64,000 nucleotides of DNA from Anaeramoeba ignava BMAN (lineage: Eukaryota; Protista; Anaeramoebae), in assembly GCA_028826165.1 (NCBI GenBank), contig JAPDFW010000053.1, positions 186,001-250,000 on the forward strand. The letters are read 5' to 3'. Position numbers and translations under genes: made by a program. The first letter of the stretch is position 1, and each line of letters opens with the position of its first letter. This document shows positions 8,401 to 44,290 of the stretch, in pieces. The notes under the pieces are model-generated. The model made no database searches. It worked only from the letters and a program-made list of their open reading frames with translations, and had not been told where the DNA came from.

Positions 8401-11400
8401 CAGCAATATTCTTTAAAGCCCAACATCCTTGTTTTTGAATATCTTGATTATTTGGGAAATTATTCATTGATTTAATAATAGGTTCAATTCCTTTTAAATT
8501 TCTAATTTCAATTTGGTTTTCTATTTTTTTTGGGAAATAAATTGAAATTGAAATTGAAATTGAAATTAATTTTTTTTGGATTTTTTTGGAAATAAATTGA
8601 AATTAATTAAATATTTTTTGATTAATAATTAATAAGAAATAATTAATTAAAATATTTGGATTTTTGATTATTTTTTATTTACCATTATCAACAGCAATAT
8701 TCTTTAAAGCTCTACATCCTTTATATTGAATATCTTGATTATTTGGGAAATTATTCATTGATTTAATAATAGGTTCGATTCCTTTTAAATTTCTAATTTC
8801 AATATTGTTTTCTATTTTTTTGGAAATAAATTGAAATTGAAATTGAAATTGAAATTAATTTTTTTTTGGAATTTTTGGAAATAAATTGAAATTAATTAAA
8901 TATTTTTTGATTAATAATTAATAAGAAATAATTAATTAAAATATTTGGATTTTTGATTATTTTTATTTACCATTATCAACAGCAATATTCTTTAAAGCTC
9001 TACATCCTTTATATTGAATATTTTCATTATTTGGGAAATTATTCATTGCTTTAATAATAGGTTCGATTCCTTTTAAATTTCTAATTTCAATATTGTTTTC
9101 TATTTTTTTGGAAATAAATTGAAATTGAAATAAATTGAAATTGAAATTAATTATTTTTTTGGATTTTTTTGGAAATAAATTGAAATTGATTAAATATTTT
9201 TTTGATTAATAATTAATAATAAATAATTGATTAAAATATTTTAATTTATAATTTTATTTGTTTTTTATTTTTATTTACCATTATCAACAGCAATATTCAA
9301 TAAAGCCCAACATCCATATTTTTGAATATCTTCATTATTTGGGAAGTTATTCATTGATTTAATAATAGGTTCAATTCCTTTTAAATTTCTAATTTCAATT
9401 TTGTTTTCTATTTTTTTGGAAATTGAAATTGAAATTGAAATTAATTTTTTTGGATTTTTGGAAATAAATTGAAATTGATTAAATATTTTTTTGATTAATA
9501 ATTAATAATAAATAATTGATTAAAATATTTTAATTTATAATTTTGTTTTATTTTGATTTAATTACCATTATCAATAGCAATAAACCCTAAAGCTCCACAT
9601 CCTCGATATTGAATATCTTCATTATTTGGGAAATTATTCATTGATTTAATAATAGGTTCAATTCCTTTTAAATTTCTAATTTCAATTCTGTTTTCTATTT
9701 TTTTGGAAATAAATTGAAATTGAAATTAATTTTTTTTTGGATTTTTTTGGAAATAAATTGAAATTAATTAAATATTTTTTGATTAATAATTAATAATAAA
9801 TAATTGATTAAAATATTTGGATTTTTGATTATTTTTTAATTACCTTCATTAAAAGACAGATTATTTAAAGCCCAACATCCTTGTTTTTGAATATCTTCAT
9901 TATTTGGGAAGTTATTCATTGATTTAATAATAGGTTCAATTCCTTTTAAATTTCTAATTTCAATTTGGTTTTCTATTTTTTTGGAAATAAATTGAAATTG
10001 AAATTAATTTTTTTTGGATTTTTTTGGAAATAAATTGAAATTAATTAAATATTTTTTTGATTAATAATTAATAATAAATAATTGATTAAAATATTTGGAT
10101 TTTTGATTATTTTTTAATTACCTTCATTAAAAGACAGATTATTTAAAGCCCAACATCCTTGTTTTTGAATATCTTGATTATTTGGGAAATTATTCATTGA
10201 TTTAATAATAGGTTCAATTCCTTTTAAATTTCTAATTTCAATTCTGTTTTCTATTTTTTTGATATTTTTTTTTTGGAAAATAAATTGAAATTGAAATTGA
10301 AATTGAAATTGAAATTAATTTTTTTTGGATTTTTTTGGAAATAAATTGAAATTAATTAAATATTTTTTGATTAATAATTAATAATAAATAATTGATTAAA
10401 ATATTTGGATTTTTGGTTATTTTTATTTACCATTATCAACAGCAATATTCGATAAAGCTCTACATCCTTGTTTTTGAATATCTTGATTATTTGGGAAATT
10501 ATTCATTGATTTAATAATAGGTTCAATTCCTTTTAAATTTCTAATTTCAATTTTGTTTTCTATTTTTTTGGAAATAAATTGAAATTGAAATTAATTTTTT
10601 TGGATTTTTGGAAATAAATTGAAATTGATTAAATATTTTTTTGATTAATAATTAATAATAAATAATTGATTAAAATATTTTAATTTATAATTTTGTTTTT
10701 TATTTTGATTTAATTACCATTATCAATAGCAATAAACCCTAAAGCTCCACATCCTCGATATTGAATATCTTCATTATTTGGGAAATTATTCATTGATTTA
10801 ATAATAGGTTCAATTCCTTTTAAATTTCTAATTTCAATTCTGTTTTCTATTTTTTTGATATTTTTTATTTTTGGAAAATAAATTGAAATTGAAATTGAAA
10901 TTGAAATTGAAATTAATTTTTTTGGATTTTTGGAAATAAATTGAAATTGATTAAATATTTTTTGATTAATAATAAATAATAAATAATTGATTAAAATATT
11001 TGGATTTTTGATTATTTTTTATTTACCTTTATTAAAAGACAGATTATTTAAAGCCCAACATCCTTGTTTTTGAATATCTTCATTATTTGGGAAATTATTC
11101 ATTGCTTTAATAATAGGTTCAATTCCTTTTAAATTTCTAATTTCAATTTGGTTTTCTATTTTTTTGGAAATTGAAATTGAAATTGAAATTAATTTTTTTG
11201 GATTTTTGGAAATAAATTGAAATTAATTAAATATTTTTTTGATTAATAATTAATAATAAATAATTAATTAAAATATTTGGATTTTTGATTATTTTTATTT
11301 ACCATTATTAAAAGCAGCAATATTCGATAAAGCTCCACATCCTTTTTCTTGAATAACTTGATTATTTGGGAAATTATTCATTGATTTAATAATAGGTTCA

Positions 11401-14400
11401 ATTCCTTTTAAATTTCTAATTTCAATTTTGTTTTCTATTTTTTTGGAAATAAATTGAAATTGAAATTAATTTTTTTTTGGAATTTTTTGGAAATAAATTG
11501 AAATTAATTAAATATTTTTTTGATTAATAATTAATAATAAATAATTAATTAAAATATTTTAATTTATAATTTTATGTTTTTTATTTTTATTTACCATTAT
11601 CAGCAGCAATATTCCATAGAGCTCCACATCCTTTATATTGAATATCTTCATTATTTGGGAAATTATTCATTGATTTAATAATAGGTTCAATTCCTTTTAA
11701 ATTTCTAATTTCAATATTGTTTTCTATTTATTTGAAAATTGAAATTGAAATTGAAATTGAAATTAATTTTTTTTTGGATTTTTGGAAATAAATTGAAATT
11801 AATTAAATATTTTTTTGATTAATAATTAATAATAAATAATTGATTAAAATATTTTAATTTATATTTTGATTTATAATTTTATTTATTTACCATTATCAAC
11901 AGCAATATTAATTAAAGCTCCACATCCTTTTTCTTGAATATCTTCATTATTTGGGAAATTATTCATTGATTTAATAATAGGTTCAATTCCTTTTAAATTT
12001 CTAATTTCAATTTTGTTTTCTATTTTTTTGATATTTTTTTTTGGAAAATAAATTTGGAATTGGAATTGAAATTAATTTTCTCATTTCATTTTATAAATTA
12101 AATTTTTTAAAATTTTTGATGAGAATTAGAAATGTAAAAATTATGGAAATAAATATTTGTTTTTTCTTATAAATTTTCTTACCTGAATTAATTGCAATAT
12201 TAGTTAAAATTGAAATAGATTTTTCTTGAATAATTTGATTATTTGGATAATTATTGATTGTATTAATAATTGTTTTAATTCCATTTAATTTAGAAATTTC
12301 AATTCCTTGTAATTTCCGATTTTCTATTTCTTCAGCTTTTTGTTTTGTGAAAGAAGAAAAAGAAAGAGATTTAAATTTGCAAATAATTCATTTTCTTTTT
12401 TTTTTTGATTTTTGATTTGTTAAAAAAAGAAATTAATTTACTTTTTAATCCTCCTGAAAATATTAATAAAGCTTCAGATGCTTTTATTTGAATATCTTCA
12501 TTATTTGGGAAATTATTCATTACATTTATAAGAGGTTCAATTCCATTAAATTTTTTTATTTCTATTTGATTTTCTTTAAATTTCAATTATTATTATTATT
12601 ATTATTTTTAATATTATTATTCAAAAATTGTTTCAAAAAAATAAATATTTTACCTTCATTTTCTTTTGCAAATTTTTGTAAAATAAAACATCCATTTTCT
12701 TGAATAATTTCATTATTTGGAAATTTATTCATACATTCGACAATAAAAGGAAAATTAAATTTCAATTTAATTTTTGGTTTAAATTAAATTAAATTAAATT
12801 AAATTAAATTAAATTAAATTTTCTTTTTTTTTTGTTTTTGAGTTTGATTTACTTTGATCTTGTTGTTGAATTGAATTTGAAAGATCTTGTAAAAAATTTG
12901 TTGTTTTTTCTGGTGATTGAAGAATTTCTATTTTTAATTTTTGATTTTCAATTTCATTTTGAATATTTTTGATTTGTGGATTAATTTTTGAATAAAATTC
13001 ATTTTTTCTTTTTTCAATTTCATTGTTAAAATCTTGAATTATTTTTTCAATTTCATTTAAATTTTCATTTTTAATTTCAATTTCTTGAATTTTCTTTTCA
13101 ATTTTTTCTAAATATTTATTTTTTTTAAATTTAATCTTATTTTTTATTTCTTGAATAATTTTTTCTAAATTTTCATTTTCATTTTCAATTTTGTTTTGTT
13201 GAATAAATTCTTTAAATTCTTGAATTTCTTTCTTTTTTTTTTGTTCAAATTCATTCTTAAATTGTTGAATTGTTTCTTCAAATAATTTTAAATCTTCTTC
13301 TGTTTTTAATTTGGGAAAATTTATTAATTCTTGATATTTTTTATCAATTTCTTCCAAATTTATATTCTTTCTTTTTTTAAATTTATTTTGAATTTCTTCA
13401 ATTTTTTTTTGAAAAATTTCTAAATCTTTTTTTCTATTTTGTTCAAATAAATCTTTCAAATTAATAATTCTTTTATTAAATTCTTGTAAATATTCTTTTT
13501 TCATTTTTTCATCATTTTGAATTAATTGTTGAAATTTTTCTTGAATTTCTTTTTTCCATTTTTCATATTCTTCTTTAATTTCTTCAATTTCTTTTTTAAT
13601 TTTTTCTAATTTTTCTTTTTCTTTTTGGATTATTCTTTTTTTCTCATAAAGTTGATTAATTTGAAATTCTGTTATTTGATTTTCTTGTTCAAATTCTTGA
13701 ATATTTGAATTTAATAAAACAGTTTTATTTTGGAGTTGGGAAATGAATTTATTTTTGATTTGTTGAATTTGAAATTGATTAATTGATTTTGTTTGTGAAA
13801 TTTGATTTAATAAATTTGAAAAAGAATTTTCATTTTCATTTATTTCATTTTCATTTTCATTTTCATTTTGATTTGTTTCAAATTTAATTAATTTTATCAA
13901 TTTTTTTTGATTATTTTGATTCCATTTTTGTTCAATTTGTTGAATAATTTGAAGTTGATTTGGAATATTTTGATTTAAAGAAATTAATCCAATAAAATTG
14001 TAAATTTGATTTTGATTTAAATATTTATCAAAATTTGGATTTGAAATGATAAATTGAATATTTTGGAAAATAAATTTTTCACAATTTTGAGAAAGATTTT
14101 GTGAATTAATTTCTTGAGATTTGAAATAAATTTCCAAAATATTTTGAATATTAAAAATTGATTGAATTTCAAGTTCAATTTTGAATTGAATTTCTTTTAA
14201 TTTAATTTGATTTGCAAATTTAAAATATTCATCAAATTTTCGTTTATCAAATTTAAATTTTCCATTATAAAAAAATTTAATAATTGGTTTAACAATTTCA
14301 GAACTAAAATTATTAAAATAAATTGAATTAAATTTATTTTCTCTTCTGTTTATCATAAAATATTTTGAACGAGCTTCTAAAATTGATTTATGACAAGGAA

Positions 14401-15259
14401 TTGAAATTTTATCTTTTCCACAATAAATTTGAAAATCTGAAGTTTTTTTATTTCCAAACATTAAACCAATTTGTTTATTTGCTTGTTTTATTAAGAATTT
14501 ATTGAATTTTTTAATTTTGGATTGAATTTCTTCATTTTGATTTTGATTTTGATTTTGATTTGATTTTGATTTTGATTTTGAATTTGAATTTGAATTTGAT
14601 TTTGATTTTGGCTTATGCTTTGAATGATGTTTTGATTTTGATTTTGAATGATGTTTTGAATGATGTTTTGAATGATGTTTTGAATTTGAATTTTGTTTTG
14701 AATCAATTTGTTTTGAATCAATTTGTTTTGAATGATGTGTTGATTTTGATTTTGATTTTGATTTTGATTTTGGCTTATGCTTTGAATGATGTTTTGAATG
14801 ATGTTTTGAATGATGTTGATTTTGATTTTGATTTTGATTTTGATTTTGATTTTGATTTTGATTTTGATTTTGATTTTGCTTTGAATGATGTTTTTGAATG
14901 ATGTTTTGAATGATGTTTTGAATGATGTTGAATGATGTTTTGATTTGATTTTTGTTTTTAATTTTTTGATTTTGATTTTTGTTTTTTGATTTTGATTTTG
15001 ATTTTGATTTTTGATTTTCAATTTGATTTTGATTTTGATTTTGATTTTGTTTTTTGATTTTATTTGATTTTGAATTTGATTTTTAATTTGATTTTGTTTT
15101 TGATGTTTTTTTGATTTTGATTTTTGTTTTGAATGATTTTTTTGAATGATGTTTTGAATTGATTTTTGGATTTTTCTTTTTGATTTTGATTTTGATTTTA
15201 ATTTGATTTTTTTTATTTCATTTTTTTTTGAATTAATTTTTTTTTGGAGAATCACTCAT
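5492..15259 (-). CDS. BTB/POZ - coiled coil - armadillo-repeat protein, one ARM repeat per exon (~26 ARM exons)
   Basis: Large exon ~14530-12852 has a BTB (SDFQIYCGKDKISIPCHKSILEARSKYF...FFYNGK) and a long E/K/Q coiled coil. Three divergent ARM exons follow (~12760-12654, 12573-12442, 12335 or 12323-12183), then 22 near-identical ARM exons, then terminal exon 5619-5492 ending QEKGKWALEKLQNN*. Probable start ATG at 15259 (MSDSPKK), followed by a low-complexity N-terminus with indels. No canonical AG is visible for the exon ending at 12654. Confidence 0.8.
5780..12019 (-). repeat. Tandem array of 22 exon+intron units (~270-310 bp); each exon 129 or 132 nt, phase 1-1, one armadillo repeat
   Basis: Exons: 5780-5908, 6061-6189, 6346-6474, 6653-6781, 6940-7068, 7232-7360, 7501-7629, 7805-7933, 8102-8230, 8389-8520, 8683-8811, 8971-9099, 9279-9407, 9566-9694, 9844-9972, 10122-10250, 10431-10559, 10718-10846, 11027-11155, 11303-11434, 11595-11723, 11891-12019. 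Each is flanked by AATAG| and G|GTAA. Consensus ENxIEIRNLKGIEPIIKSMNNFPNNQDIQxxGCxALxNIAxxx. Confidence 0.92.
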
Positions 15260-15652
15260 TTTTCTTTTTATTTTAATTTTATTTTTAAAAAGGAAAATTA
15301 TTTTTAATTGGAATAAATAAAATAAATATTTGAGAAATAATAATAAATCAATAATAAAAATAATTTTCTTTTCATTTTTATTTTGGAATTAAATTTAAAT
15401 TGTAATTTTTTATTGATAATTTTTTGTTTAAATAAAATTTGAAAATTTATTTTTCCTCTTTTTTTGTTTATTGAAATAATAATAGATTAATAAGTAATTA
15501 ACAATTATTTTGTTTTTATTTCATTTATATTTTATATTTATATTATTATTTATTATTAAATTTGATTTTTATTTTGTTAAATTAAATAATAAAAAAATAT
15601 TTACTTAATTTTAAATTTTGAAAAGAAAAAAATGAAAAAAAATAAAAAATGG

Positions 15653-15960
15653 AATAAAGAATATTAAATAGTTAAATTTAGAATTAATCCTATTTTATAT
15701 ATTTTATTAATATTTCTTTATTTAAAATAATATAAAATAATTCCCAATAATTTAATAAAATTAATAAAATATTTTAATTAATTTATTTCAAAAATGAATA
15801 AAGAATATTAAATAATTAAATTTAGAATTAATTCTATTTTATATATTTTATTAATATTTCTTTATTTAAAATAATATAAAATTATTCCCAAAAATTTAAT
15901 AAAATTAATGAAATATTTTAATAAAGAAAAAATTGAATAAAGAATATTAAATAATAATTT
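15653..15960. repeat. ~144-bp AT-rich tandem repeat (2+ copies); inverted homolog at 29521-30070
   Basis: Unit starts aataaagaatattaaata at ~15653, ~15797 and ~15937. Its reverse complement matches 29521-29645. Confidence 0.75.
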
Positions 15961-16044
15961 AAATTGGATTTCTTTTATTTTAAACTGAATTAAATTTTTC
16001 ATTTAAAAAATTAATATTTTTATTTTATTTTTTATTTATTGATT

Positions 16045-16610
16045 AATATTGAAAAGAAAATATTTAAAAATAAAACAATAAATTATTATTTTTAATAATA
16101 AAATTGAATTATAAATTATTTTTAAATTAATTTATAAATTAAATATTAAATTAAACTTATTCTTATTTTTTATATTTCGATTGTTTTAATATTGAAAAAG
16201 AAAATATTGAAAAATAAAACAATAAATTATTATTTTAATAATAAAATTGAATATTAAATTATTTTTAAATTAATTTCTAAATTAAATATTAAATTAAACT
16301 TATTCTCATTTTTATATTTGATTTTTAATATTGAAAAAGAAAATATTGAAAAATAAATTAATAAATCATTATTTTAATAATAAAATTGAATATTAAATTA
16401 TTTTTAAATTAATTTATAAATTAAATATTAAATTAAACTTATTCTTATTTTTTATATTTGATTGATTAATTTTGAAAAAAGAAAATATTGAAAAATAAAT
16501 TAATAAATTATTATTTTAATAATAAAATTGAATAATAAATTATTTTTTAAATTGATTTCTAAATTAAATATTAAATTAAATTTATTCTCATTTTTTATAT
16601 TTGATTGATT
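16045..16610. repeat. ~140-bp AT-rich tandem repeat, 4 copies
   Basis: gaaaa(a)gaaaatatt...ttaaatattaaattaaacttattc recurs at ~16051, 16193, 16333 and 16474. Confidence 0.8.
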
Positions 16611-16846
16611 AATTGAATTTTATTTTTTTGGATTTTGATTTTTTTTGGAATAAAGAAAAAATAAAAAATAATAAAAGAGGGGATTAGAAAATGAATTATT
16701 TTGAATTAAAAGAAAATAAGGAGAATTTTGTTTATTGATTATTTTTTTGATCAAAAAAAAGAGAAAAAAAAATTTATTTTAGGGGATTTAAAAATTAATT
16801 GAAAAATTTCATTTTCATTTTTATTTTTATTTTCATTTTTAAAAAA

Positions 16847-17523: not shown

Positions 17524-20500
17524 ATGCAACAACTAAAATTCATTTCTTTAATTTCAAAAGTTTGTACTGAACTTGAAAATAATGTTGGAATTAAACAAAA
17601 ATTTGTTGCAGAATTTATTGTAGAAATTTGGGAAAATTCAAAAACATTGGAAGAATTTAAACAAAATTTAAAAGAAAAACAAGCAGAATTTCCAGAAAAT
17701 TTTGTAACAAATATATATAATATAATAAGTAGATTACATCCGAATGCAAAAAAGAAAGAAAATTTAAAAGAAAATTTAAAAGAAAATTTAAAAGAAAAAG
17801 AAAATTTAAAAGAAAATGATGTAATTCTAAATAAGAATGACTCAACTTTAGATCAAATTAATTTAAAAGAAAATGAACATAAACCTCATTCTCATCATTC
17901 ACATTCACATCATTCTCATTCACATCATCATTCACATTCACATCATCATAATGACCATAATCATTATAAGGAAAATAATTCACGACACAGAAATACTCAA
18001 AACCGTTGGGATCAAAAAGAAAAAATAGAGAAAAAAATTGAAGAAGAAGATGAAGTGAAAAAAAATGCGCATTTTTATAACGAAAGGGAAGCCATTGATG
18101 AAGAGCCCATACAATATAAAATATATTCAGGAGAAGTTACTGGAATAAGAGACTTTGGGTGTTTTGTGCGACTTGATGGAGTTCGTGGAAAACGAGAAGG
18201 GCTCTGTCACATCACGCAAATGAAGAAAACTGGAAGAGTTTTAGATCCACATGAAATTGTACATAAAAAGCAGAGAGTGTTTGTGAAAGTTCTTGCTTAT
18301 GCGGGAAGTAAAATTAGTTTATCAATGAAGGAGGCTGATCAATCAAATGGTGAAGATCTTTTTCCAAGAGAAATTGTTGATTCTGAAAAGAAGACTTCTT
18401 TATATGATCCATTAAGAAGTAATCCAACAAGACCTAATGATTTGAATGAAGGCGCTATGGCGTTAAGCATGTATGCATTTAACAAGGAGAATCAAAACGA
18501 ATTTTATTTATTTCAGGAATTTATATTGAATTTGAAATTCAAATTGAATTTAAAAATATTATTGAAATTTATATTTATTTTGATTAAAACGAAAATCGGA
18601 AAAAAAAAACAAACAGTCATCAAACATAAAAATTTCTATTATATTATTATTATATTATTATTATTATATTATTATCATTATATAACAACAAAATATCGCA
18701 ACTGCATAATTTTTTTTTATTCGCAAACAAAAACAATCAGGCAAGAAAAAAAGCACACAAAACGAGACCTTCCAACACCCGAAAGATGGATCCAAAAGCA
18801 GCTTGAGTCTGCAGGGGTTCTAGACATTCGTGAGCAAACAAACTACAACGAAGAAACAGGAGTACTTGATCTAGATATGGAAGACGAGATGGAGGAGGAT
18901 CTAGAAATCGAGCTTAACGATGAAGAGCCGACATTTCTGCGGGGACAAACACGGCACACAATGGCGCTATCGCCGATCAAAATCTTGAAAAATCCTGATG
19001 GATCACTTGTTCGCGCAGCAATGACCCAAGTTACGTTGGCAAAAGAACGCAAGGAAGTTCGAGAGCAGCAAAGAAACCAAATGCTGGAAAGTATCCCCAA
19101 AGATATTAACCGTCCTTGGATCGATCCACTTCCGGAAGAAGGAGAACGCCATTTGGCACTGGATCTGCGCGGATTGGGTATGGCACAAGAAGATCTTCCA
19201 GAATGGAAAAAATCCACTTTTGGGAAAACAGTCGCATACGGAAAGAAGACCAATTTGTCAATTAAGGAGCAGCGCGAATCACTGCCGATCTTCAAGCTGC
19301 GAAACGAACTGATGAGCGCAATTAGGGACAATCAAGTGCTGATTTGCGTAGGAGAAACAGGATCAGGAAAAACAACGCAGATCACGCAATATCTTGCGGA
19401 AGACGGATATGCAAAAGAAGGACGGATCGGATGCACGCAGCCAAGACGAGTCGCCGCAATGAGCGTTGCGAAGAGAGTTAGCGAGGAGTTTGGCTGCCGT
19501 TTGGGTCAAGAGGTTGGATATTCAATCAGATTTGAAGATTTCACAAGTAATGAAACCGTGATCAAATACATGACGGATGGAATGCTTCTTCGGGAGTGCT
19601 TGATAGACCCTGATCTGACTGGATATTCCGTTGTAATGCTTGATGAAGCGCACGAACGTACGGTGCACACTGATGTTCTTTTGGCCTTCTTAAAGAAACG
19701 GTGAAAAGAAGACCTGATCTAAAATTAATTGTTACTTCGGCAACACTGGATGCAGAAAAAGTTTTCCGATTTCTTCTTCGAATGTCCCATCTTCACCATC
19801 CCAGGTCGCAACTACCCCGTTGAGATCTTATACACAAAAGAGCCCGAATCAGACTATCTCGACGCAGCGCTCATCACAGTCATGCAGATCCATCTGGCAG
19901 AGCCACCGGGAGATATCCTATTGTTTTTAACAGGACAAGAAGAAATCGGCACTGCTTGTCAGATTCTTTTTGAGCGTGTAAAATCACTTGGTCCAAAAGC
20001 GCCTGAGCTGATGATCCTCCCCGTTTATTCTGCACTTCCTTCTGAGATCCAAACCCGAATTTTCGAACCAACACCAAAGGGATCAAGAAAGGTTGTTATC
20101 GCAACAAACATTGCGGAGACTTCATTAACAATTGACGGAATATATTATGTGATCGATCCAGGGTTTGTGAAGCAGAAATGCTACAACCCAAGATTGGGGA
20201 TGGATTCGCTTGTTGTAACACCGATCTCACAGGCAGCAGCAAGACAGCGCGCAGGGCGAGCCGGAAGAACAGGTCCTGGAAAATGTTTTCGACTTTACAC
20301 AGAATCTGCTTATCATAATGAAATGTTCCCAAATACAATTCCCGAGATCCAGCGCACAAATCTCGGCACAACTGTTCTCACCCTCAAAGTGCTTGGAATC
20401 AACGATCTCCTCCACTTCAATTTCATGGATCCGCCGCCGACTCAATCCCTCGTTTCCGCCATGGAACAGCTCTACATGCTCGGCGCTCTCGATGAGGAGG

Positions 20501-21263
20501 GTTTGCTTACGAAATTGGGAAGACAAATGGCTGAATTCCCCCTCGATCCTCCTTTGTCTAAGATGCTTATTTCCTCCGTTTCTTTCGGTTGTGCTGAGGA
20601 AATTCTTACCATCGTCTCAATGCTTTCCGTTGAATCCGTTTTTTATAGACCAAAAGAAAAACAGGCTCAAGCTGACCAGAAAAAAGCAAAGTTTATTTCT
20701 CCTGATGGCGACCATCTTACTCTCCTCAATGTCTATGAATCCCTGGAAAAAGAAATAAATTCAGTAATCCTTGGTGCTTTGAGAATTTTATCCAGCCAAG
20801 ATCCCTCAGAAGAGCTCAAGAAATCAGAAAGCAAATTCTCCCAATTTTGGATCGGCAAAAATTGGACGTTGTTTCTTGTGGAACTGCAACTGTTCCTATT
20901 ATCAAATCAATTGTTTCTGGCTATTTTACAAAAGCCGCTAAAAAAGACCCTCAAGAAGGTTATAAAACCCTTGTTGAAGGTCAAACTGTTTATATCCATC
21001 CAAGCTCAGCTCTTTTCCAAGTTAAACCTCAATGGGTTGTTTATCACGAACTCGTTCTTACTTCAAAGGAATATATGAGAAATGTTTCTTTTATTGACCC
21101 TAAATGGCTCGTTGAATTCGCCCCAAAGTTTTATAGAATTGCTGATCCTACTAAATTGACTAGACGTAAAAAATCTGAAAAACTTTTACCTTTATGGGAT
21201 AGGTTTCTTCAAAATCAAGATTCTTGGAGACTTTCTAAACAAAAGAGGATTAGAAGAAATTAA
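17524..21263 (+). CDS. PRP22: Pre-mRNA splicing DEAH-box helicase Prp22/DHX8
   Basis: N-terminal [10 protein letters not shown]1 domain, [35 protein letters not shown]2 and OB domains. Intron 18471-18740. Homopolymer frameshifts at ~19682, ~19760 and ~20742-20755. Confidence 0.95.
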
Positions 21264-22310: not shown

Positions 22311-22525
22311 AAAATTGAAAAAGAAAAGACAAAAAAGGAAATTTTATCAAAATTTTTCTTCTTTTTCTAAATAAAAATTTTTCCTTTTTAAAATCTTTTT
22401 CATTTTTTTACTTTTTAAAAACAAAATCAAAAACACAAAAACACAAAAACACAAAAAATACAAAATCAAAATCAAAAACAAAAACAAAAACAAATGAAAA
22501 AATCAAAATAAAAAAAAATAAAATC

Positions 22526-22556
<31 letters not shown>

Positions 22557-23599
22557 AATCAAAATCAAAATCAAAAGATAAATAAAAAATCAAATAAAAA
22601 ATAAAAAAGATAATAAAAATCAAAATAAAGATATTCATAAAATCAATATTAAAGATAATAAAGAAATAAAAAATCAAAATCAAAAATAATAAAAAATTAA
22701 AAAAAATAAAATCAAAGAAAAAGGAAAAAAGAAAAGATATTAATAAAAATTTAAAATTTCTTTTTAAAATAAAAAGATATTCAAAATTTTCAAAAGATAT
22801 TAAAAAGAATTTTCAATTTTTCAATCAAAAGATTAAAAATATTCAAAAATAAAAAAGAAAACAAAAACAAAAAAAACAAAAAGAAAATAAAGATAATAAA
22901 AAAAACAAACAATAATAAACAAAAATAAAAACATAAAAACATAATAAAAATAAAATTTAAAAACAAATTCAAAAATAAAAAAATAAAAGATAATAAAATA
23001 AAAAAAAAATAAAGAAATAAAGATATTAAAAGATAAAGAAATTCAAAAAGATATTAAAGATATTAAAGATAATAAAAATAATAAAGATAATAAAAATAAT
23101 AAAGATAATAAAGATAATAAAGATAATAAAATAATAAAAGATAATAAAGATATTAAAGATAATAAAGATATTAAAGATAATAAAGATATTAAAGATATTA
23201 AATAAAGATATTAAAGAAAAATTTAAAAGAATTTTAAAGATTTTTTAAAAAGAATTTAATCAAGATCCAAAAATTTGGAAAAACAAAAACCAATTTTGAT
23301 TTAAAAATAGAAAAACAAAAACAATTTCCAAAAATTAAAACAAAATTGAAAAAATGAAAAAATCAAATAAAGATAATAAAAATAAAAAAAAACCATAATT
23401 TTTAATTTTAAAGATTTTGCAATAGAAAAACAAGTTTAAAGAAAATATAATTCAATTTTGATTTGAAAAAAAAGATGCTAATGAAAATTTTATTGAAATA
23501 TTGCTTAAAAAAAAAAAAAATCCAAATATTTCAATTGAAATTATTAAATATTTAAAAACAAATCAGGAGCTTTGATATTATTAAAAATTGAAAATAAAA

Positions 23600-26500
23600 A
23601 TGAAACAATTCAAAAACAAACATATCAAACATGCTTGTTTAAATCCAAATATTTCAATTGAAATTATTAAATATTTAATTTCATCAGGAATTAATATTAA
23701 TTCAAAAACAAATCAAAATCAAACAGTTTTACATATTGCTTGTAGAAATGAAAATATTTCACTTGAAATTATTAAATTTTAATTTCATCAGGAATTGATA
23801 TTAATTCAAAAATAAAAGATAAAAATAAAACAGCTTTACATATTGCTTGTAAAAATGAAAATATTTCACTTGAAATTATTAAATATTTAATTTCATCAGG
23901 AATTGATATTAATTCAAAAACAGATTGGGGTTGGACAGCTTTACATATTGCTTGTAAAAATGAAAATATTTCACTTGAAATTATTAAATATTTAATTTCA
24001 TCAGGAATTGATATTAATTCAAAAACAAATTTAAATGAAACAGTTTTACATATTGCTTGTTTAAATCCAAATATTTCATTTGAAATTATTAAATATTTAA
24101 TTTCATCAGGAATTGATATTAATTCAAAAACAAATTATAATCAAACAGTTTTACATTATGCTTCTTTAAATCCAAATATTTCACTTGAAATTATTAAATA
24201 TTTAATTTCATCAGGAATTGATATTAATTCAAAAACAAATTTGGGTTTAACAGCTTTACATATTACTTGTAAAAATGAAAATATTTCCATTGAAATTATT
24301 AAATATTTAATTTCATCAGGAATTGATATTAATTCAAAAACAAAACAAAATAAAACAGCTTTACATATTGCTTGTAAAAATGAAAATATTTCACTTGAAA
24401 TTATTAAATATTTAATTTTATCAGGAATTAATATTAATTCAAAAACATATCTAAATCAATCAGCTTTACATTATGCTTGTGAAAATAAAAATCCAAATAT
24501 TTCACTTAAAATTATTAAATATTTAATTTCATCAGGAATTGATATTAATTCAAAAACATATTGGGGTTGGACAGCTTTACATATTGCTTGTAAAAATGAA
24601 AATATTTCCATTGAAATTATTAAATATTTAATTTCATCAGGAATTGATATTAATTCAAAAACAAATCAAAATGAAACAGTTTTACATTATGCTTCTTTAA
24701 ATCCAAATATTTCACTTGAAATTATTAAATATTTAATTTCATCAGGAATTGATATTAATTCAAAAACAAATCAAAATCAAACAGTTTTACATTATACTTG
24801 TTCTAATCCAAATATTTCATTTGAAATTATTAAATATTTAATTTCATCAGGAATTGATATTAATTCAAAAACAAATCAAAATGAAACAGCTTTACATTAT
24901 GCTTGTAAAAATGAAAATATTTCCATTGAAATTATTAAATATTTAATTTCATCAGGAATTGATATTAATTCAAAAATAAAAGATAAAAATGAAACAACTT
25001 TATATATTGCTTGTAAAAATAAAAATATTTCACTTGAAATTATTAAATATTTAATTTCATCAGGAATTGATATTAATTCAAAAACAAATCAAAATGAAAC
25101 AGCTTTACATATTGCTTGTAGAAATAAAAATATTTCATTTGAAATTATTAAATATTTAATTTCATCAGGAATTGATATTAATTCAAAAACAAATCAAAAA
25201 TGAAACAGCTTTACATTATGCTTGTAAAAATGAAAATATTTCCATTGAAATTATTAAATATTTAATTTCATCAGGAATTGATATTAATTCAAAAATAAAA
25301 GATAAAAATGAAACAACTTTATATATTGCTTGTAAAAATAAAAATATTTCACTTGAAATTATTAAATATTTAATTTTATCAGGAATTGATATTAATTCAA
25401 AAACAAATCAAAATGAAACAGTTTTACATATTGCTTGTGAAATAAAATATTTCACTTGAAATTATTAAATATTTAATTTCATCAGGAATTGATATTAATT
25501 CAAAAACAAATCAAAATGAAACAGTTTTACATATTGCTTGTAAAAATAAAAATGTTTCACTTGAAATTATTAAATATTTAATTTCATCAGGAATTGATAT
25601 TAATTCAAAAACAAATCAAAATGAAACAGCTTTACATTATGCTTGTAAAAATGAAAATATTTCACTTAAAATTATTAAATATTTAATTTCATCAGGAATT
25701 GATATTAATTCAAAAACAAATCAAAATCAAACAGCTTTACATATTGCTTGTGAAAATAAAAATATTTCACTTGAAATTATTAAATATTTAATTTCATCAG
25801 GAATTGATATTAATTCAAAAACAAATCAAAATCAAACAGCTTTACATATTGCTTGTGAAATTCAAATATTTCACTTGAAATTATTAAATATTTAATTTTA
25901 TCAGGAATTGATATTAATTCAAAAACAAATGAAAATCAAACAGCTTTACATATTGCTTGTTCTAATCCAAATATTTCACTTGAAATTATTAAATATTTAA
26001 TTTCATCAGGAATTGATATTAATTCAAAAACAACTCGAAATGAAACAGTTTTACATATTGCTTGTGACAATTTAAATCAAAATATTTCACTTGAAATTAT
26101 TAAATATTTAATTTCATCAGGAATTGATATTAATTCAAAAACAAATAAAAATCAAACAGCTTTACATATTGCTTGTTCTAATCCAAATATTTCACTTGAA
26201 ATTATTAAATATTTAATTTCATCAGGAATTGATATTAATTCAAAAACAAATCAAAATCAAACAGTTTTACATATTGCTTGTGACAATAAAAATATTTCAC
26301 TTGAATTTTTTGGATATTTAAATTCATCAGGAATTAATATTAATCCAAAAACAAATGAAAATGAAACAATTTTGGATTATACTTGTAAAAATAAAGATAT
26401 TTCACTTGAAATTATTAAATATTTAATTTCATCAGGAATTGATATTAATTCAAAAACAAATCAAAATATAACAGCTTTACATATTGCTTGTTTAAATAAA

Positions 26501-27637
26501 AATATTTCACTTGAAATTATTAAATATTTAATTTCATCAGGAATTGATATTAATTCAAAAACAATTTGGGGTTGGACAGCTTTACATATGGTTTGTGAAT
26601 ATCGAAATATTCAATTTATCAAGTTATTAATGAAGAATGATGTAAATATTTTTGATTTAGAAGATTATCGAATTAATAAAGAAATAATTAATTTATTTCC
26701 AAAAATTTATTCAATTAATGAAGATTTAAATAATTTTTTAAAATCAAGTCAAAATGAAAATGAAAATGAAAAATTTACAGATTTAGAAATTAAAACAAAT
26801 GATTATTTCAAATTTAAAGTTCATAAAATAATTTTATTAACAAGATTTGATAATGATAAATTAATTTTACAAAAATTTATCAATATTTGTAATAGAAAAC
26901 CAAAAAGAGATGTTCAATTAGCTTTAAATTTTCTTTATACTGGATTTACTAATTTTGATTATTTTATTCAAAGATTTCAAAATTTCATCAATTATAAAAA
27001 TCAAATGAAAGAAATTGATGAATCAAAACAATATCCATATCCATATCCATATCCATATCCATTTCAAAATGAAAATGAAAATGAAAAAATAAAAAAATTT
27101 GAAAATTTAAGAAAAACAGAAATTGAAAAAGAAAATGAAATTGAAGAACAAGAAAATGAATTAATGAAAGATATTTTTGAAAAAATTGGAATTGAATCAA
27201 ATTGGATTGAAACAAAAAAAGGAAGAAAAGGAATAATAAAAGATTTATCAAAATTATATCAACAAAATGAAACAAAAGATTTTAAAATAATTTGTTCAGA
27301 AAATGAAAATGAAATTCAAAATCAAAATCAAAATAAAAAAGAAATTAAAGTTCATAAATTAATATTAATAATAAGAAGTGAATTATTTAAAGGAATGTTT
27401 TTAAATGTTCAAGATCAATCAAATCAAGTTCATGATTATTCACGAAAATCATTTGAAACAATAAATCAATTTATTTATTTCCTTTATCATGATGAATTTG
27501 AAGAAGAAACAAAAATAACAAAAGAAAATCTTGAAGAATATGTTGATATAAAAGATTATTATCAATTAAATCCAAAATCATTAATTGGAGAATTATTACT
27601 TGATTTTGATTATTTTAAAAATATTTTTTTCAATTAA
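23600..27637 (+). CDS. Ankyrin-repeat (~28 near-identical 35-aa units) + C-terminal double BTB-like protein; start unresolved
   Basis: 105-nt coding unit (SSGIDINSKTxx[N/G]xTALH[I/Y]ACxNxNISLEIIKYLI) from ~23630 to ~26600, with no introns. C-terminus has FTDLEI..FKVHKIILLTR and KDFKII..KVHKLILIIRSELFKGMF..FLYHD. Frameshifts at ~23779, 25200, 25441 and 25860. 5' region 23350-23600 is garbled. Confidence 0.85.
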
Positions 27638-27638
27638 T

Positions 27639-27641
27639 TAA

Positions 27642-27697
<56 letters not shown>
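27639..27697. repeat. (AAAG)n microsatellite
   Basis: Directly visible between the ANK-BTB stop and the BTB-TLDc start. Confidence 0.9.
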
Positions 27698-27765
27698 ATT
27701 TCAAACCATTTTCTTTCCATTTTTTTTTTCATTTTTTTTTTCAATTTTTCAAAATTTAAATAAAA

Positions 27766-29214
27766 ATGGAAAATTATTTAAATTTAGAAAAACTTTCAAA
27801 TGATTTAAAAAATTTATTTCAAAATCAAAATCAAAATGAAAACCAAAATGAAAGTTATTTTGATTTTGAAATAATTTGTGAACAAAATCAAATTTCATTT
27901 AAAACTCATAAATCAATTCTTTCTTCAAGAAGTTATTATTTTAAATCTCTTTTCAATTCAAAAATGAAAGAATATCAAGAAAATAAATTAATTTTAAAAG
28001 ATGTTTCAAGTTCAATTCTATCTTCAATTTTAAATTATTTTTATTCAGGAAAAATTGAAATTAATTTAGAAAATGCAATAGAAATTTTAATTTTTTCATC
28101 AAAATATTTAATTGATGAATTAATTGAAATTTGTTTAAATTTTATCAAAAATAATTTACAATTTGAAACTATTATTGATATTCTTAAATTATCTGAATCA
28201 ATGAACTTAAATCAATTATTAGATTCTTCTTATCAATTTATTTCTGAAAATTTTGAAGAATTTATTAAAACTCCATTTTTTCTTGAACTTGAAGAAAATC
28301 ATTTAAAATCAATTTTATCAAATGATGATATTTTTATGAATGAATTTAAAATTTTCCAATCAATAATAAAATGGGGAAAACATAAATCAAATATTAATCA
28401 AGAAAAAGAAGAAAAAGAAGAAAAAGAACAATTACAAAATCAAATTTCAAATATTATTGATAAAATCAGATTTATTGATTTTTCAAAACAAGAACTTAAA
28501 GATACTTTAAAAGAAGATTTAATTCCAAATCAAATTTCAGAAAAATTAATTCAATTCCAAAAACTTCAAAATGATACAAAACAATTAAATCAATTTATTG
28601 AAAAAGAAAATTCATTCATTTTCAAAACAAGATTTAGATTTAAATCAAAAATTATTCAAGAAAAAGAACATTTCAATAAATTGAAAGAATGGATAAATGA
28701 TGAAGAATTCTGTTCCAAAATGAAAAAAGGATTTTCAGCCAAAAAAGATGGATTTGATTGTAAAAAATGGCATTCAATTTGTGATAATAAAGGAAAAACA
28801 TTAATTATTATTCAAACCAAAGATAATTTTATTTTTGGAGGATTTACTCAAATTGGATTTACAACTGATAAGTCAAAATGGAGTGAAAATTGGAGAGATA
28901 GTGGACATATTAGAGATTCAAATGCATTTATTTTTTCATTAAGAAATGATAAGAATGATAGAAACCCTGAAAAATTTCCAATTCAAAAAAAGAAAGAAGA
29001 ATTTGCAATTTTTTATGTATCAAATGATGGACCAAGATTTGGTGAATTTGATGATATTTGGATTGATGCAGATCTTTTAACAGGAGGAACTTTTTTTGGA
29101 AATTCATATAAATTACCTAAAGGAATTCATTATGAAACCGAAAAAGCGAATAGTTATTTAGCTGGTTCTTATGATGATTGGGAAATTGAAGAACTTGAGA
29201 CTTATTTCATTTAA
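27766..29214 (+). CDS. BTB-BACK-TLDc protein, copy 1
   Basis: BTB (FDFEII..FKTHKSILSSRSYYFKSLFNSKMKE), BACK (FLELEENHLKSILSNDD..KW) and TLDc (FSAKKDGF..H..CDNKGKTL..IFGGFT..AFIFSL..GPRFG..EELETY). Intronless. Confidence 0.9.
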   Translation: MENYLNLEKLSNDLKNLFQNQNQNENQNESYFDFEIICEQNQISFKTHKSILSSRSYYFKSLFNSKMKEYQENKLILKDVSSSILSSILNYFYSGKIEINLENAIEILIFSSKYLIDELIEICLNFIKNNLQFETIIDILKLSESMNLNQLLDSSYQFISENFEEFIKTPFFLELEENHLKSILSNDDIFMNEFKIFQSIIKWGKHKSNINQEKEEKEEKEQLQNQISNIIDKIRFIDFSKQELKDTLKEDLIPNQISEKLIQFQKLQNDTKQLNQFIEKENSFIFKTRFRFKSKIIQEKEHFNKLKEWINDEEFCSKMKKGFSAKKDGFDCKKWHSICDNKGKTLIIIQTKDNFIFGGFTQIGFTTDKSKWSENWRDSGHIRDSNAFIFSLRNDKNDRNPEKFPIQKKKEEFAIFYVSNDGPRFGEFDDIWIDADLLTGGTFFGNSYKLPKGIHYETEKANSYLAGSYDDWEIEELETYFI

Positions 29215-29520
29215 AAACTTTTTTCCATTCTTTTTTAAAATTTAATTCAATTTTCTTTTACTTTCAATCAAATAAAATTCTTCAAATTAATAAATATGAA
29301 ACAAACCAAATTTCAAATAATTTTAAATTAATTTAAAATTATTATTAAAAATTTTGAAAAAAAAAATGAAAAATTATTTTTTTAGATATTAAAACAAAAT
29401 AAAAATTGGGAATAGAAATTAATAATGATTAAATTTCAATTATTTATTATTAGATAAATTTATAATGAAAACAATTATAATTTATTATTAAAAACTATTC
29501 AAATTCAATTTTTCTCTTTA

Positions 29521-30070
29521 TTAAAATATTTTATTAATTTTATTAAATTATTTGGAATAAGTTTATATTATTTTTAAATAAAGAAATATTAATAAAATAT
29601 ATAAATCAAGATTAATTCTAAATCTAATTATTTAATATTCTTTATTTAATTTTTGAAATAAATTAATTAAAATATTTTGTTAATTTTATTTAATTATTTG
29701 GAATAAGTTTATATTATTTTAAACATAAAATTAAATCTTAATTTAATTTTTAAACTGATTTCCAAATTAAATATTAATTCAAATTAATTTTCATTTTTTA
29801 AATAAATTAATTAAAATATTTTATTAATTTTATTAAATCATTTAGAATAATTTTATATTATTTTAAACATAAAATTAAATCTTAAATTAATTTTTAAACT
29901 GATTTCTAAATCTAATTATTTAATATTATTTATTTAAAATTTGAAATAAATTAATTAAAATATTTTATTAATTTTATATAATTATTTGGAATAATTTTAT
30001 ATTATTTTAAACATAAAATTAAATCTTAAATTAATTTTTAAATTGATTTCTAAATTAAATATTAATTCAA
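29521..30070. repeat. ~145-bp AT-rich tandem repeat, ~4 copies, inverted relative to 15653-15960
   Basis: ttaaaatatttt(a/g)ttaattttat...ggaataa recurs at ~29521, 29667, 29811 and 29955. Confidence 0.75.
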
Positions 30071-30131
30071 ATTAATTTTCATTTTTTTCATTTTTTTCAT
30101 TTTTTTCTTTTCATTTTTTGTTTCTTTTTAA

Positions 30132-40900: not shown

Positions 40901-42790
40901 ATGAAAAGTAAAAGAAAATTAAAAAAACAAAATAGAAAAAAAAATAGAAAACAAAATCAAAATCAAAATCAAAATCAAAATCAAAATATAAATCAAAATC
41001 AAAATCAAAATATAAATCAAATGAATGATATTTTCTTTTTTGGTGAAAATAATGTTTCTCAACTTCTTGTTAGCGAAAAAATAAAAGAACCAATTCAATT
41101 TAAATTTGGAAATGAAAATGAAAATGAAAATGAAAAACAAATTAAACAAATTTCATCAAGTGATTTTTCAACAATTTTCCTTTTTAAAAATGGAAAAGCA
41201 ATTGAATATACAATTGAAAAAGTAAATCCTGCAAAAATCCAAATTGAAAATATTCAAAAAGTAACTGTTGGATATCGAAATGAAGCTATTTTAACAAAGA
41301 AGGAAATGTATTTGCCAAAGGAAAATGCATTAATTCAAATAATCCAAAACAATTTATCAATATTTCATCATTAATTGAAGATACAGATGATAGAATAATT
41401 GAAGATATTGTTTCTGGAAATCGTTCAATTTACTTATTAACTTCAAATCAAAATGCTTATGGAATTGGTTTAAATGATTGGAGTCAACTTGGTTTTGATT
41501 ACGAAACACTTAAAAAAACAGAAAAACCAATTTTAATGATGAATAATGTTTCTAAAATATTTTCATCAAATTCTTCAGATTCTGTTTTTCTTTTAGATTC
41601 AAATCAAAGATTATTTGCATGCGGAAATAATCAATTTAGTCAACTTGGATTAGGAAAATCAAGAAAAGGAGAACGGAAAATCAAAAAATTAACCAAAATC
41701 CAAAATATTCCAAAAGGTAAAATAATTGATATTCAATCTGGATATCTTCATTCAATAATGTTGATTGAAAATGAAGATGAAAATCAAAATCCAAAAAGAA
41801 AACTTTATTCATGTGGATACTCTCGATTTAATGAATATGATGAATATGAAGATGAAAATACTTATGAATTTACTGAAATCAAATCATCTTTATTTGAAAA
41901 TGATGATAATATTCTTGAATTTTCTGTTGGATATGAACATACTTTGATTTTAACATCCAAAGAGAAATTAATTGGATTTGGAAATAATTCTCATGGTCAA
42001 TTAGGAACTGAAAAAATAAGATATTACCAACAAATTCCAATTCAAATTGAACTTCCTAAATTAAGATTTAATGAAGATCTTTCTAATTATCATATTTCTT
42101 GTGGATATCACAATTCATTTCTTTATTATTCTCCTCCTATTTCCAATCTTGAAGAAGATTTGATAAAACTATTTAGAAGAAAAGAATTTTGTGATATTTC
42201 ATTTAAAACCGAAAATGGAGAAATAATTGAAGCTCATAAATTAATATTGAAATATAGATTAAATCAAAATCAAAATCAAATTGAAAAACTTCAAGAAATT
42301 ATTTCAAAAAAATCAATTAAAGAATCAAATCAAATATTTGAAATTATTTATTCAAACAATTCCAAAATAAAACCGAAATTATATTTTGAAATTAAAGAAA
42401 TTATAAATTCAAATGAAAAAATTGAAGAAACAATGAAAAGAATTTATTTAAATGAAAATGAAAATGAAAATGAAAAAGATTTTATTATTGAAAGAAAAGA
42501 AAAACAATATAAATTTCCAAAATTAATATTAATAATGAGAAGTGAATTATATCGAGGAATGTTTTTATCTGTTACAAATGATACTTCTAATAAAGTTACA
42601 GATTATAGTGAATTAAGTAATAAATCATTTCAAATTTTTGAATATTGGATTTATTCAAATCAAATTAAAGATGGAATTCAAATTACACAAGAAATCAATT
42701 GATGAAATTCAAATTGGAATTGATTATTTTCAATTAAATCAAACAAATCCAAATTTATTTGATTTATTAATTAACAAATTTAATAATTAA
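40901..42790 (+). CDS. RCC1-like repeat + C-terminal double BTB-like protein
   Basis: RCC1 motifs GNNQFSQLGLG, SGYLHS, SVGYEHTL and GNNSHGQLG. BTB EFCDISF..IEAHKLILKYR, plus KDF..PKLILIMRSELYRGMF. Single-base frameshifts at ~41299 and ~42698; corrected stop at 42788-42790. Confidence 0.85.
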
Positions 42791-42844
42791 AATTAAAATT
42801 ATTTTCATTTTTTCATTTTTTTCTTTTCCAAAATTTTAATAAAA

Positions 42845-44290
42845 ATGGAAAATTATTTAAATTTAGAAAAACTTTCAAATGATTTAAAAAAATTATTTCA
42901 AAATCAAAATCAAAATGAAAACCAAAATGAAAGTTATTTTGATTTTGAAATAATTTGTGAACAAAATCAAATTTCATTTAAAACTCATAAATCAATTCTT
43001 TCTTCAAGAAGTGAATATTTTAAAACTCTTTTCAATTCAAAAATGAAAGAATATCAAGAAAATAAATTAATTTTAAAAGATGTTTCAAGTTCAATTCTAT
43101 CTTCAATTTTGAATTATCTTTATTCAGGAAAAATTGAAATTAATTTAGAAAATGCAATAGAAATTTTAATTTTTTCATCAAAATATTTAATTGATGAATT
43201 AATTGAAATTTGTTCAAATTTTATCAAAAATAATTTACAATTTGAAACTATTATTGATATTCTTAAATTATCTGAATCAATGAATTTAAATCAATTATTA
43301 GATTCTTCTTATAAATTTATTTCTGATAATTTTGAAGAATTTATCAAAACTTCATTTTTTCTTGAACTTGAAGAAAATCATTTAAAATCAATTTTATCAA
43401 ATGATGATATTTTTATGAATGAATTTAAAATTTTTCAATCAATAATAAAATGGGGAAAACATAAATCAAATATTAATCAAGAAAAAGAAGAATTTGAAAA
43501 AGAACAATTACAAAATCAAATTTCAAATGTTATTGAAAAAATCAGATTTATTGATTTTTCAAAACAAGAACTTAAAGATACTTTAAAAGAAGATTTAATT
43601 CCAAATCAAATTTCAGAAAAATTAATTCAATTCCAAAAACTTCAAAATGATACAAAACAATTAAATCAATTTATTGAAAAAGAAAATTCATTCATTTTCA
43701 AATCAAGATTTAAATTTAAATCAAGAATTATTCAAGAAAAAGAACATTTCAATAAATTGAAAGAATGGATAAATGATGAAGAATTCTGTTCCAAAATGAA
43801 AAAAGGATTTTCAGCCAAAAAAGATGGATTTGATTCAAAAATTTTTCATGAAAAAGTTGATAATAAAGGAAAAACATTAATTATTATTCAAACCAAAGAT
43901 AATTTTATTTTTGGAGGATTTACTCAAATTGGATTTACAACTGATAAATCAAAATGGAGTGAAAATTATGGAGATAGCGGATATATTAGAGATTCAAATG
44001 CATTTATTTTTTCATTAAGAAACAGAAGAAATGATAGAAAACCAGAGAAATTCACAATTCAACAAGATCTTTCACAATTTGCAATTGCATATAATTTGAA
44101 CCAAGGTCCAACTTTTGGAGGAGGATATGATTTTTATTTAAATTCTAATTTACAATCAGGCCATTCAAGTTTTGGTTTTAGTTACAATCTTCCTAATGGA
44201 ATTATTAAATTTTCAGATGAAGCAAAAAGTTATTTAGCTGGTTCTTATAAATCATGGATTGTTGAAGAAGTTGAAGCTCTTTTCATTTAA
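42845..44290 (+). CDS. BTB-BACK-TLDc protein, copy 2
   Basis: Near-identical to 27766-29214 over the first ~390 codons; divergent TLDc C-terminus. Confidence 0.9.
   Translation: MENYLNLEKLSNDLKKLFQNQNQNENQNESYFDFEIICEQNQISFKTHKSILSSRSEYFKTLFNSKMKEYQENKLILKDVSSSILSSILNYLYSGKIEINLENAIEILIFSSKYLIDELIEICSNFIKNNLQFETIIDILKLSESMNLNQLLDSSYKFISDNFEEFIKTSFFLELEENHLKSILSNDDIFMNEFKIFQSIIKWGKHKSNINQEKEEFEKEQLQNQISNVIEKIRFIDFSKQELKDTLKEDLIPNQISEKLIQFQKLQNDTKQLNQFIEKENSFIFKSRFKFKSRIIQEKEHFNKLKEWINDEEFCSKMKKGFSAKKDGFDSKIFHEKVDNKGKTLIIIQTKDNFIFGGFTQIGFTTDKSKWSENYGDSGYIRDSNAFIFSLRNRRNDRKPEKFTIQQDLSQFAIAYNLNQGPTFGGGYDFYLNSNLQSGHSSFGFSYNLPNGIIKFSDEAKSYLAGSYKSWIVEEVEALFI

Follow-up and report, generated by a model that had tools for sequence, protein, structure and literature searches.

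Introduction

By what means might a single-celled eukaryote renew a protein surface used for recognition, and to which output might such a surface be coupled? The question is raised by a gene in a stretch of 64,000 nucleotides from Anaeramoeba ignava BMAN (assembly GCA_028826165.1, contig JAPDFW010000053.1, positions 186,001 to 250,000 of the forward strand), which is AT-rich overall and which we refer to as the window, its own numbering being used throughout. A first-pass annotation, made from the letters alone, had described there about 28 intronless 105-nt ankyrin units, hypervariable at the positions that are used for binding in designed ankyrin repeat proteins (DARPins), and fused to BTB domains. 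The gene joins a long, self-similar ankyrin array to two tandem BTB domains, and its variation is concentrated on the binding face of the array; on balance, we lean toward reading its product as a substrate adaptor of a Cul3 ubiquitin ligase whose binding face is diversifying.

The ankyrin array and the fold of its units

Tandem Repeats Finder reports an array with a 105-nt period at 23632–26564 (27.8 copies, 89% matches), and splitting at the INSK anchor yields 27 full units, preceded by a half unit and followed by a divergent last one (Table 1). Neighboring units abut directly, with no intron between them; 18 of the 27 are 105 nt long, three are 108 nt, and two are 111 nt, the remaining four (units 1, 15, 17, and 21, of 104, 106, 103, and 104 nt, respectively) being frameshifted. 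All unit counts given here rest on the 23 in-frame units, with the four frameshifted ones dropped. The sequence IIKYLISSGIDINSK is exact in 20 of these 23, all of which are distinct at the protein level, with a mean pairwise identity of 79% in amino acids and 90% in nucleotides and an identity of 86% to the array consensus (693/805 residues). The hairpin reads NQNE or NQNQ in 8 of the 23, and every hairpin and helix-1 end that the first-pass annotation had named is found in the array. A 592-codon open frame from 25859 covers seven repeats and then two BTB domains before its stop at 27637, and in the two long open frames searched with Pfam the sole credible domains are ANK and BTB, with neither NACHT nor NB-ARC. 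The array observation is therefore confirmed, as is the fusion, the array being followed by an intact tandem BTB–BTB module according to both Pfam and the predicted fold.

An AlphaFold2 (AF2) model of units 3–9, with a predicted local distance difference test score (pLDDT) of 96.8, places helix 1 at unit residues 7–13 and helix 2 at residues 19–27. It matches DARPin 6mol with a template-modeling (TM) score of 0.88 and a root-mean-square deviation (rmsd) of 1.8, the TM range over DARPin-type folds being 0.81–0.88, and in this predicted structure codons 3, 5, 10, and 13 fall on the hairpin and helix 1. When variability is scored against the classic set of randomized DARPin positions, which we take to be 2, 3, 5, 13, 14, and 33, the enrichment has p = 0.002. 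At the positions randomized in a published ankyrin library, namely 2, 3, 5, 10, 13, and 33 (PMC4308713), the entropy is 1.49 bits, the other positions having 0.36 bits (23 units, exact p = 0.0004), so that surface positions are indeed where the units vary most. The earlier claim of hypervariability thus stands with respect to place but not to degree: variability is moderate, and positions 14 and 33 are invariant. Codon 15 in the inter-helix loop and the hydrophobic codons 7 and 19 are variable as well.

Apparent selection on the binding face

In a tree-free count, the six library codons account for 21 replacement steps, whereas the 35 codons together show four synonymous steps, none of them in codons 19–35 of the 23 units; the ratio of nonsynonymous to synonymous rates (omega) at the library codons comes to 5.8–7.8 (p ≤ 2e-4) whichever of five mutation models is used, strong AT bias included. 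Site-wise codon models (F3x4) lead to the same place, with codons 3, 5, and 13 at an omega of 6.2 and a likelihood-ratio test (LRT) value of 25.2 for M2a versus M1a. This signal holds on a second tree, reaches 31.7 with codon 10 added when units 16, 25, and 26 are dropped, and contrasts with null simulations with recombination, 0 of 37 of which exceeded an LRT of 6.3. Pairwise piS at the variable codons was discarded as a path-averaging artifact.

Several points weigh against taking these figures at face value. The synonymous baseline consists of four events and absolute omega may be inflated; the remaining 29 codons also stand at 1.0–2.2; the whole-unit excess of replacements is weak after AT correction (p 0.02–0.43) and loses significance when that correction is strong; and several codon changes are multi-nucleotide, a class of change that can mislead site models. 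The gene might accordingly be an ordinary long ankyrin array, with units that are alike by recent amplification and binding-face sites that are merely the least constrained, the selection signal then arising from AT codon bias, the thin synonymous baseline, and the multi-nucleotide changes. In favor of this account, which we consider unlikely, long ankyrin arrays are described in PMC7314423 as generally made of similar units, the longer being the more similar; the G+C content at synonymous third positions (GC3s) of the BTB-family genes in the window is 0.03–0.06; and a BTB-TLDc paralog pair of the window likewise has few synonymous differences (21/89). The array nevertheless has fewer still (4/50, Fisher p = 0.023), the A/T-neutral synonymous alternatives that these genes employ (ACA 31/ACT 25, TCA 107/TCT 34) are nearly invariant in it, and the signal survives both the F3x4 codon models and the null simulations. 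The difference between the two classes of sites is robust, the size of omega is not, and the variation of the binding face appears to be positively selected.

As for the source of the variants, targeted adenine hypermutation of the diversity-generating retroelement type was rejected: changes run both ways (23 AT>GC, 14 GC>AT), many codons rich in A do not vary, and Pfam finds no reverse transcriptase among the 18 open reading frames scanned.

Copying and homogenization of the units

Intragenic tandem recombination had been proposed for this gene together with the duplication of a multi-unit block. The block is there, and its boundaries are given in Table 1; its copies differ by three substitutions and three single-base indels, all three of which break the frame in the second copy, and they share an exact stretch of 180 nt; the duplication shows that several units can be copied together. 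Homogenization appears to act within genes, since the paralogs P0003 and P0008 each have a constant scaffold of their own. Import of alleles from paralogs was considered and rejected, the WGW hairpin being present in 0 of 53 paralogs and 10 of the 17 hairpin types of the array being missing from them, as judged at the protein level in annotated proteins. For ongoing reshuffling, the statistics are less kind: incompatible site pairs number 19/64 within 6 nt and 98/236 beyond 12 nt, a test for recombination among units of the pairwise homoplasy index (PHI) type is not significant (p = 0.098), and there is no clear fall of unit similarity with distance (Mantel p = 0.088). Among short-read contigs, 20 joints with other module combinations and many 95–99% contigs may stem from other loci, alleles, or errors, and they were not counted as shuffling. 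One clear block duplication stands, and continuing reshuffling is at most suggested; from the comparison of the units we infer that recombination probably contributes to their diversification.

Integrity of the gene

Four frameshifts interrupt the array (Table 1), all of them 1–2-base indels inside A/T runs. Together with a garbled 5' end and with the lack of any database protein that matches this gene, they speak against a working adaptor, and they would suit a recently dead pseudogene, that is, a relic adaptor of a birth-and-death family with real frameshifts and a decayed 5' end; many family members are in fact annotated in truncated form (P0115, for example, has 79 aa). We regard such a death as very unlikely. 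No unit contains an in-frame stop, there is no stop among the 50 codon changes in the array (p 0.003–0.02), the longer indels among units preserve the frame, and the 3' frame is open over its whole length. An in-frame form at 25857 (frameshift 4) occurs in short-read contigs of runs X1 and X3, which come from one sample, although this contig could derive from another copy of the unit. At the other three frameshifts the contigs, to the detriment of the argument, show nothing either way, the intact copies being placed on twin units, and the reads are likewise silent on the 5' flank; the contigs are short, 1038 of the 1511 from X1 fit more than one unit, and none spans the array.

The same window offers a point of comparison in an S1-DEAH-HA2 helicase (17524–21078), presumably a Prp22-like, spliceosomal-type, and essential protein, in which two homopolymer indels interrupt the frame between the DEAH and SAT motifs (19680–19765), a mark of assembly error in this contig. 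The Anaeramoeba assemblies published, to which the window may belong, are Nanopore-based (PMC11550330), and homopolymer misassembly is described inside the comparable repeat array of a fungal NOD-like receptor (NLR; PMC12222747). Because they lie in A/T runs, because one is restored in short-read contigs, and because the helicase carries like indels, the four frameshifts are probably long-read or assembly errors, so that the concern raised in the first-pass annotation, that they might be real, probably does not hold, and the gene is probably intact.

Its beginning needs correction. Alignments of paralog N-termini over the 5' flank (tblastn) pass through stops and gaps, and because a remnant of a paralog-type N-terminal cap lies there, the real start is probably upstream and the ATG at 23600, previously taken as the start, is probably wrong. 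In addition, A-rich garbled ghost copies of their own sequence flank both repeat arrays of the window (4900–5400 and 22400–23600), probably as a result of poor consensus.

The tandem BTB module and Cul3

The AF2 model of the BTB module (pLDDT 87, predicted TM score 0.86) comprises two BTBs, and its top Foldseek match is the tethered Miz1–BCL6 POZ pair 4u2m, to which VIA-align gives a Z of 13.0 and an rmsd of 4.2, with 204 residues aligned over model residues 11–319. The model suggests that the two BTBs form an intramolecular pseudo-dimer. BTB2 by itself has a Z of ~13 to the BTBs of BCL6, KLHL26, and KEAP1, and the Miz1–BCL6 pair ties with single BTBs.

Whether this module would engage Cul3 is less straightforward. 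KEAP1 and SPOP carry a phi-x-E Cul3 loop (PMC10564622), and BTB2 has D where this motif has E; there is no 3-box, the protein reaching no further than the KEAP1 and SPOP BTBs in structural alignments; Pfam finds no BACK match in the open frames of this gene; and the best fold matches include zinc-finger BTBs that are not ligase components and that tie with Cul3 adaptors. The product could thus be a diversifying binder that does without Cul3, its tandem BTB serving as a scaffold or oligomerization module or reaching a ligase through a partner such as a BTB-BACK-TLDc protein; the neighboring gene encodes just such a protein, with a canonical M-K-E and a BACK domain, and it recurs beside X-BTB-BTB genes. 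We think this improbable. Located by sequence motif in 53 paralogs, the loop is phi-x-D in 47 and phi-x-E in one, the pattern not being found in five, so that an acidic residue is conserved in 48 of 53; the SPOP BTB binds Cul3 by itself at 1 uM (PMC10564622); and BTB-ankyrin proteins of Schizosaccharomyces pombe with the same layout bind the Cul3 homologue, Btb3 requiring both of its BTBs (PMC1257465). By feature similarity (score 0.95), the Atlas clusters closest to this protein are those of ABTB1, YIL001W, and At2g04740. By analogy with these proteins, we infer that the product probably binds Cul3.

Table 1. Features of the ankyrin–BTB gene, in window coordinates
Feature	Coordinates	Strand	Remarks
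Garbled remnant of N-terminal cap repeats	23260..23629 (left edge approximate)	+	FAIEKQV at 23416 = P0050 residues 39-45
Ankyrin array	23630..26659	+	Half unit, 27 full 35-37-aa units (23708-26560), divergent last unit (26561-26659)
Frameshift 1	23777..23778	+	Unit 1, one base missing in A/T stretch; probably assembly error
Three-unit block, duplicated in tandem	24859..25493	+	24859-25176 vs 25177-25493
Frameshift 2	25196..25200	+	Unit 15, one base more in an A-run than twin unit 12; probably assembly error
Frameshift 3	25440..25447	+	Unit 17, adjacent A-runs two bases short; probably assembly error
Frameshift 4	25858..25860	+	Unit 21, A-run one base short
BTB1	26678..27217	+	Divergent; long helical insertion (model residues 99-175, ~26954-27184); Pfam BTB E=0.01
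BTB2	27218..27637	+	phi-x-D loop (V-Q-D); no 3-box/BACK after; Pfam BTB E=3.9e-11; stop 27635-27637

The Anaeramoeba family

All matches to the C-terminal part, 39 and 49 in the respective searches, come from Anaeramoeba ignava or A. flamelloides. There are 53 distinct A. ignava proteins with both ANK and BTB, none of which is the product of this gene, and an exhaustive search returned 545 clusters at 50% identity. A selection of 56 clusters, mainly long ones, was taken from the 150 listed; ANK is present in 44 of them and RCC1 in 8, with one each for WD40, Sel1, SKICH, and BTB only; Ras fusions of the BTB module also occur, and the ten family matches that were looked up are all from A. ignava. 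An internal repeat identity of at least 0.70 is seen in 6 of 64 A. ignava proteins, as measured with a crude repeat splitter that misses divergent repeats, and the window gene, at 0.80, has the longest homogeneous array seen. A further member, P0118 (A. ignava, 1234 aa), has the BTB module fused to a SKICH/HECW_N-like region and is another candidate for a repeat-built binder.

Neighboring genes in the window

On the minus strand at 5492–14461, a BTB plus coiled-coil exon is followed by ~22 near-identical exons with a 289-bp period, each of which is one armadillo repeat (Pfam Arm). Ten armadillo exons of 129 nt, taken by a strict pattern, vary chiefly at codons 29–42, with 1 synonymous and 20 replacement alleles, which is the same signature as in the ankyrin array on a different type of BTB. 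The first-pass annotation had regarded the ankyrin gene as a second, independent BTB receptor; the BTB module gives no tblastn match to the BTB of this exon-array gene, which fits an independent origin.

The end of a BTB-module gene followed, 128–142 bp on, by a BTB-BACK-TLDc gene is found twice in the window, at 26588–29214 and 41536–44290. An A. ignava contig of 61,815 bp has the same pair (P0115 and P0090; P0090 is identical to the window BTB-BACK-TLDc neighbor at 464/481), which also occurs as the fused model P0016, and the two genes may be a co-duplicating or functional pair. The BTB-BACK-TLDc paralogs (27766–29214 and 42845–44290) differ at 14/229 codons in BTB-BACK and at 73/192 in TLDc, 56 of these 73 being replacements, so that TLDc, as the substrate-side domain, possibly evolves faster. 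AT-rich units of ~143–144 bp, in 2–4 copies each, lie at 15645–16613 and 29520–30087.

A model of function and its meaning

In the model that we lean toward, unequal crossing-over and gene conversion within the gene would copy and homogenize the units and so keep the helix-2 scaffold near constant, with selection retaining amino-acid variants in the hairpin (positions 3 and 5) and in helix 1 (positions 10 and 13), and the long concave surface would thereby come to show many different patches. The two BTBs, as a predicted intramolecular pseudo-dimer, would attach the adaptor to Cul3, leading to ubiquitylation of whatever the array has bound, possibly proteins of symbionts, parasites, or viruses. 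A role in defense is plausible because anaeramoebae house bacterial symbionts, one species harboring an effector-rich member of the Legionellales (PMC11550330 and bioRxiv 10.64898/2026.04.11.717937). A broader proposal, which we offer tentatively and would not bet on, is that Anaeramoeba possesses a repertoire of immune-like, Cul3-type BTB receptors, whose surfaces are renewed by repeat shuffling of ankyrin units and armadillo exons and which police symbionts or intracellular parasites; if this is true, a single-celled anaerobe would in effect possess a naturally evolved counterpart of a DARPin library, coupled to the proteasome. Concerted evolution combined with diversifying selection in repeat arrays is best known from fungal NLR sensors, and finding this combination in a putative Cul3 adaptor of an anaerobic, symbiont-bearing protist would suggest a route of self/non-self recognition that ends in degradation. 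The locus also points to a large tandem-BTB family, fused to ANK, RCC1, Sel1, WD40, SKICH, and Ras, that we did not find described, and assembly frameshifts may remove the most repetitive members of this family from gene sets.

Comparison with known systems

In the literature covered, which excluded subscription journals, searches on Anaeramoeba with BTB, ankyrin, symbiosome, or gene-family expansion, and on Trichomonas with ankyrin and BTB, returned no description of the family, nor any paper on a homogenized ankyrin array combined with tandem BTBs. The main text of PMC11550330 contains neither "POZ" nor "ubiquitin" and was not returned for BTB, and its supplements give no BTB match outside files 8, 13, 14, and 15, which the search did not cover and in which expanded families may be listed. 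Every ingredient of the gene nevertheless has a precedent, in the fungal NLR arrays, in the ANK-BTB-BTB layout, and in the nematode BTB adaptors.

The layout of ankyrin repeats followed by two tandem BTBs is shared with Btb3 of S. pombe, human ABTB1/BPOZ, YIL001W, and At2g04740 (PMC1257465). Adaptors of the tandem-BTB type are described as having two ankyrin repeats and, at the C terminus, a long helical region. The Anaeramoeba gene, in contrast, has ~28 homogenized repeats, no tail after BTB2, and a phi-x-D loop, and its family numbers more than 50, the likeness being one of features. With the nematode MATH-BTB and F-box expansions, fast-evolving adaptor families cited in PMC4334554, it shares membership in a large birth-and-death family of putative cullin adaptors and selection on the substrate-binding part, and a defense role has been proposed there too; nematode diversity lies between genes, whereas in Anaeramoeba it lies also among the repeats inside one gene. 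The DARPin and ANK-N5C libraries (PMC4308713 and PMC8229355) have in common with the array a constant framework and variation at positions 2, 3, 5, 10, and 13. The array differs from them in being natural, in its 35-aa unit, which has two inserted residues between the helices, in its fixed positions 14 and 33, in a much lower per-site diversity, and in having ~28 rather than 2–5 internal repeats.

The closest parallel in the pattern of variation is found among fungal NLR sensors (Podospora Pa_3_8560 with ANK, HET-E and HET-D with WD40), for which PMC4986451 and PMC12222747 describe high internal conservation (HiC) among near-identical repeats of varying number, positive selection on hairpin and inner-helix sites, arrays of considerable length (a Chaetomium protein has 21 ANK repeats), and assembly errors inside the array. 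Against the HiC identity threshold of at least 85% over at least 100 aa, our array stands at 86% to its consensus and 79% pairwise; positive selection at hairpin and inner-helix sites is found at codons 3, 5, and 13, plus codon 10 in the subset; and gene-specific scaffolds and the block duplication bear on concerted evolution, with the PHI-type p value reported above. Unlike the fungal NLRs, the Anaeramoeba gene has neither NACHT nor NB-ARC, its array lies N-terminal to tandem BTBs, its host is a metamonad, and its output, to judge from its domains, is likely to be ubiquitylation as against the cell-death signaling of the fungal receptors. Set beside these fungal arrays and the self-similarity of long ankyrin arrays in general, the pattern of variation is less unusual than the first-pass annotation implied.

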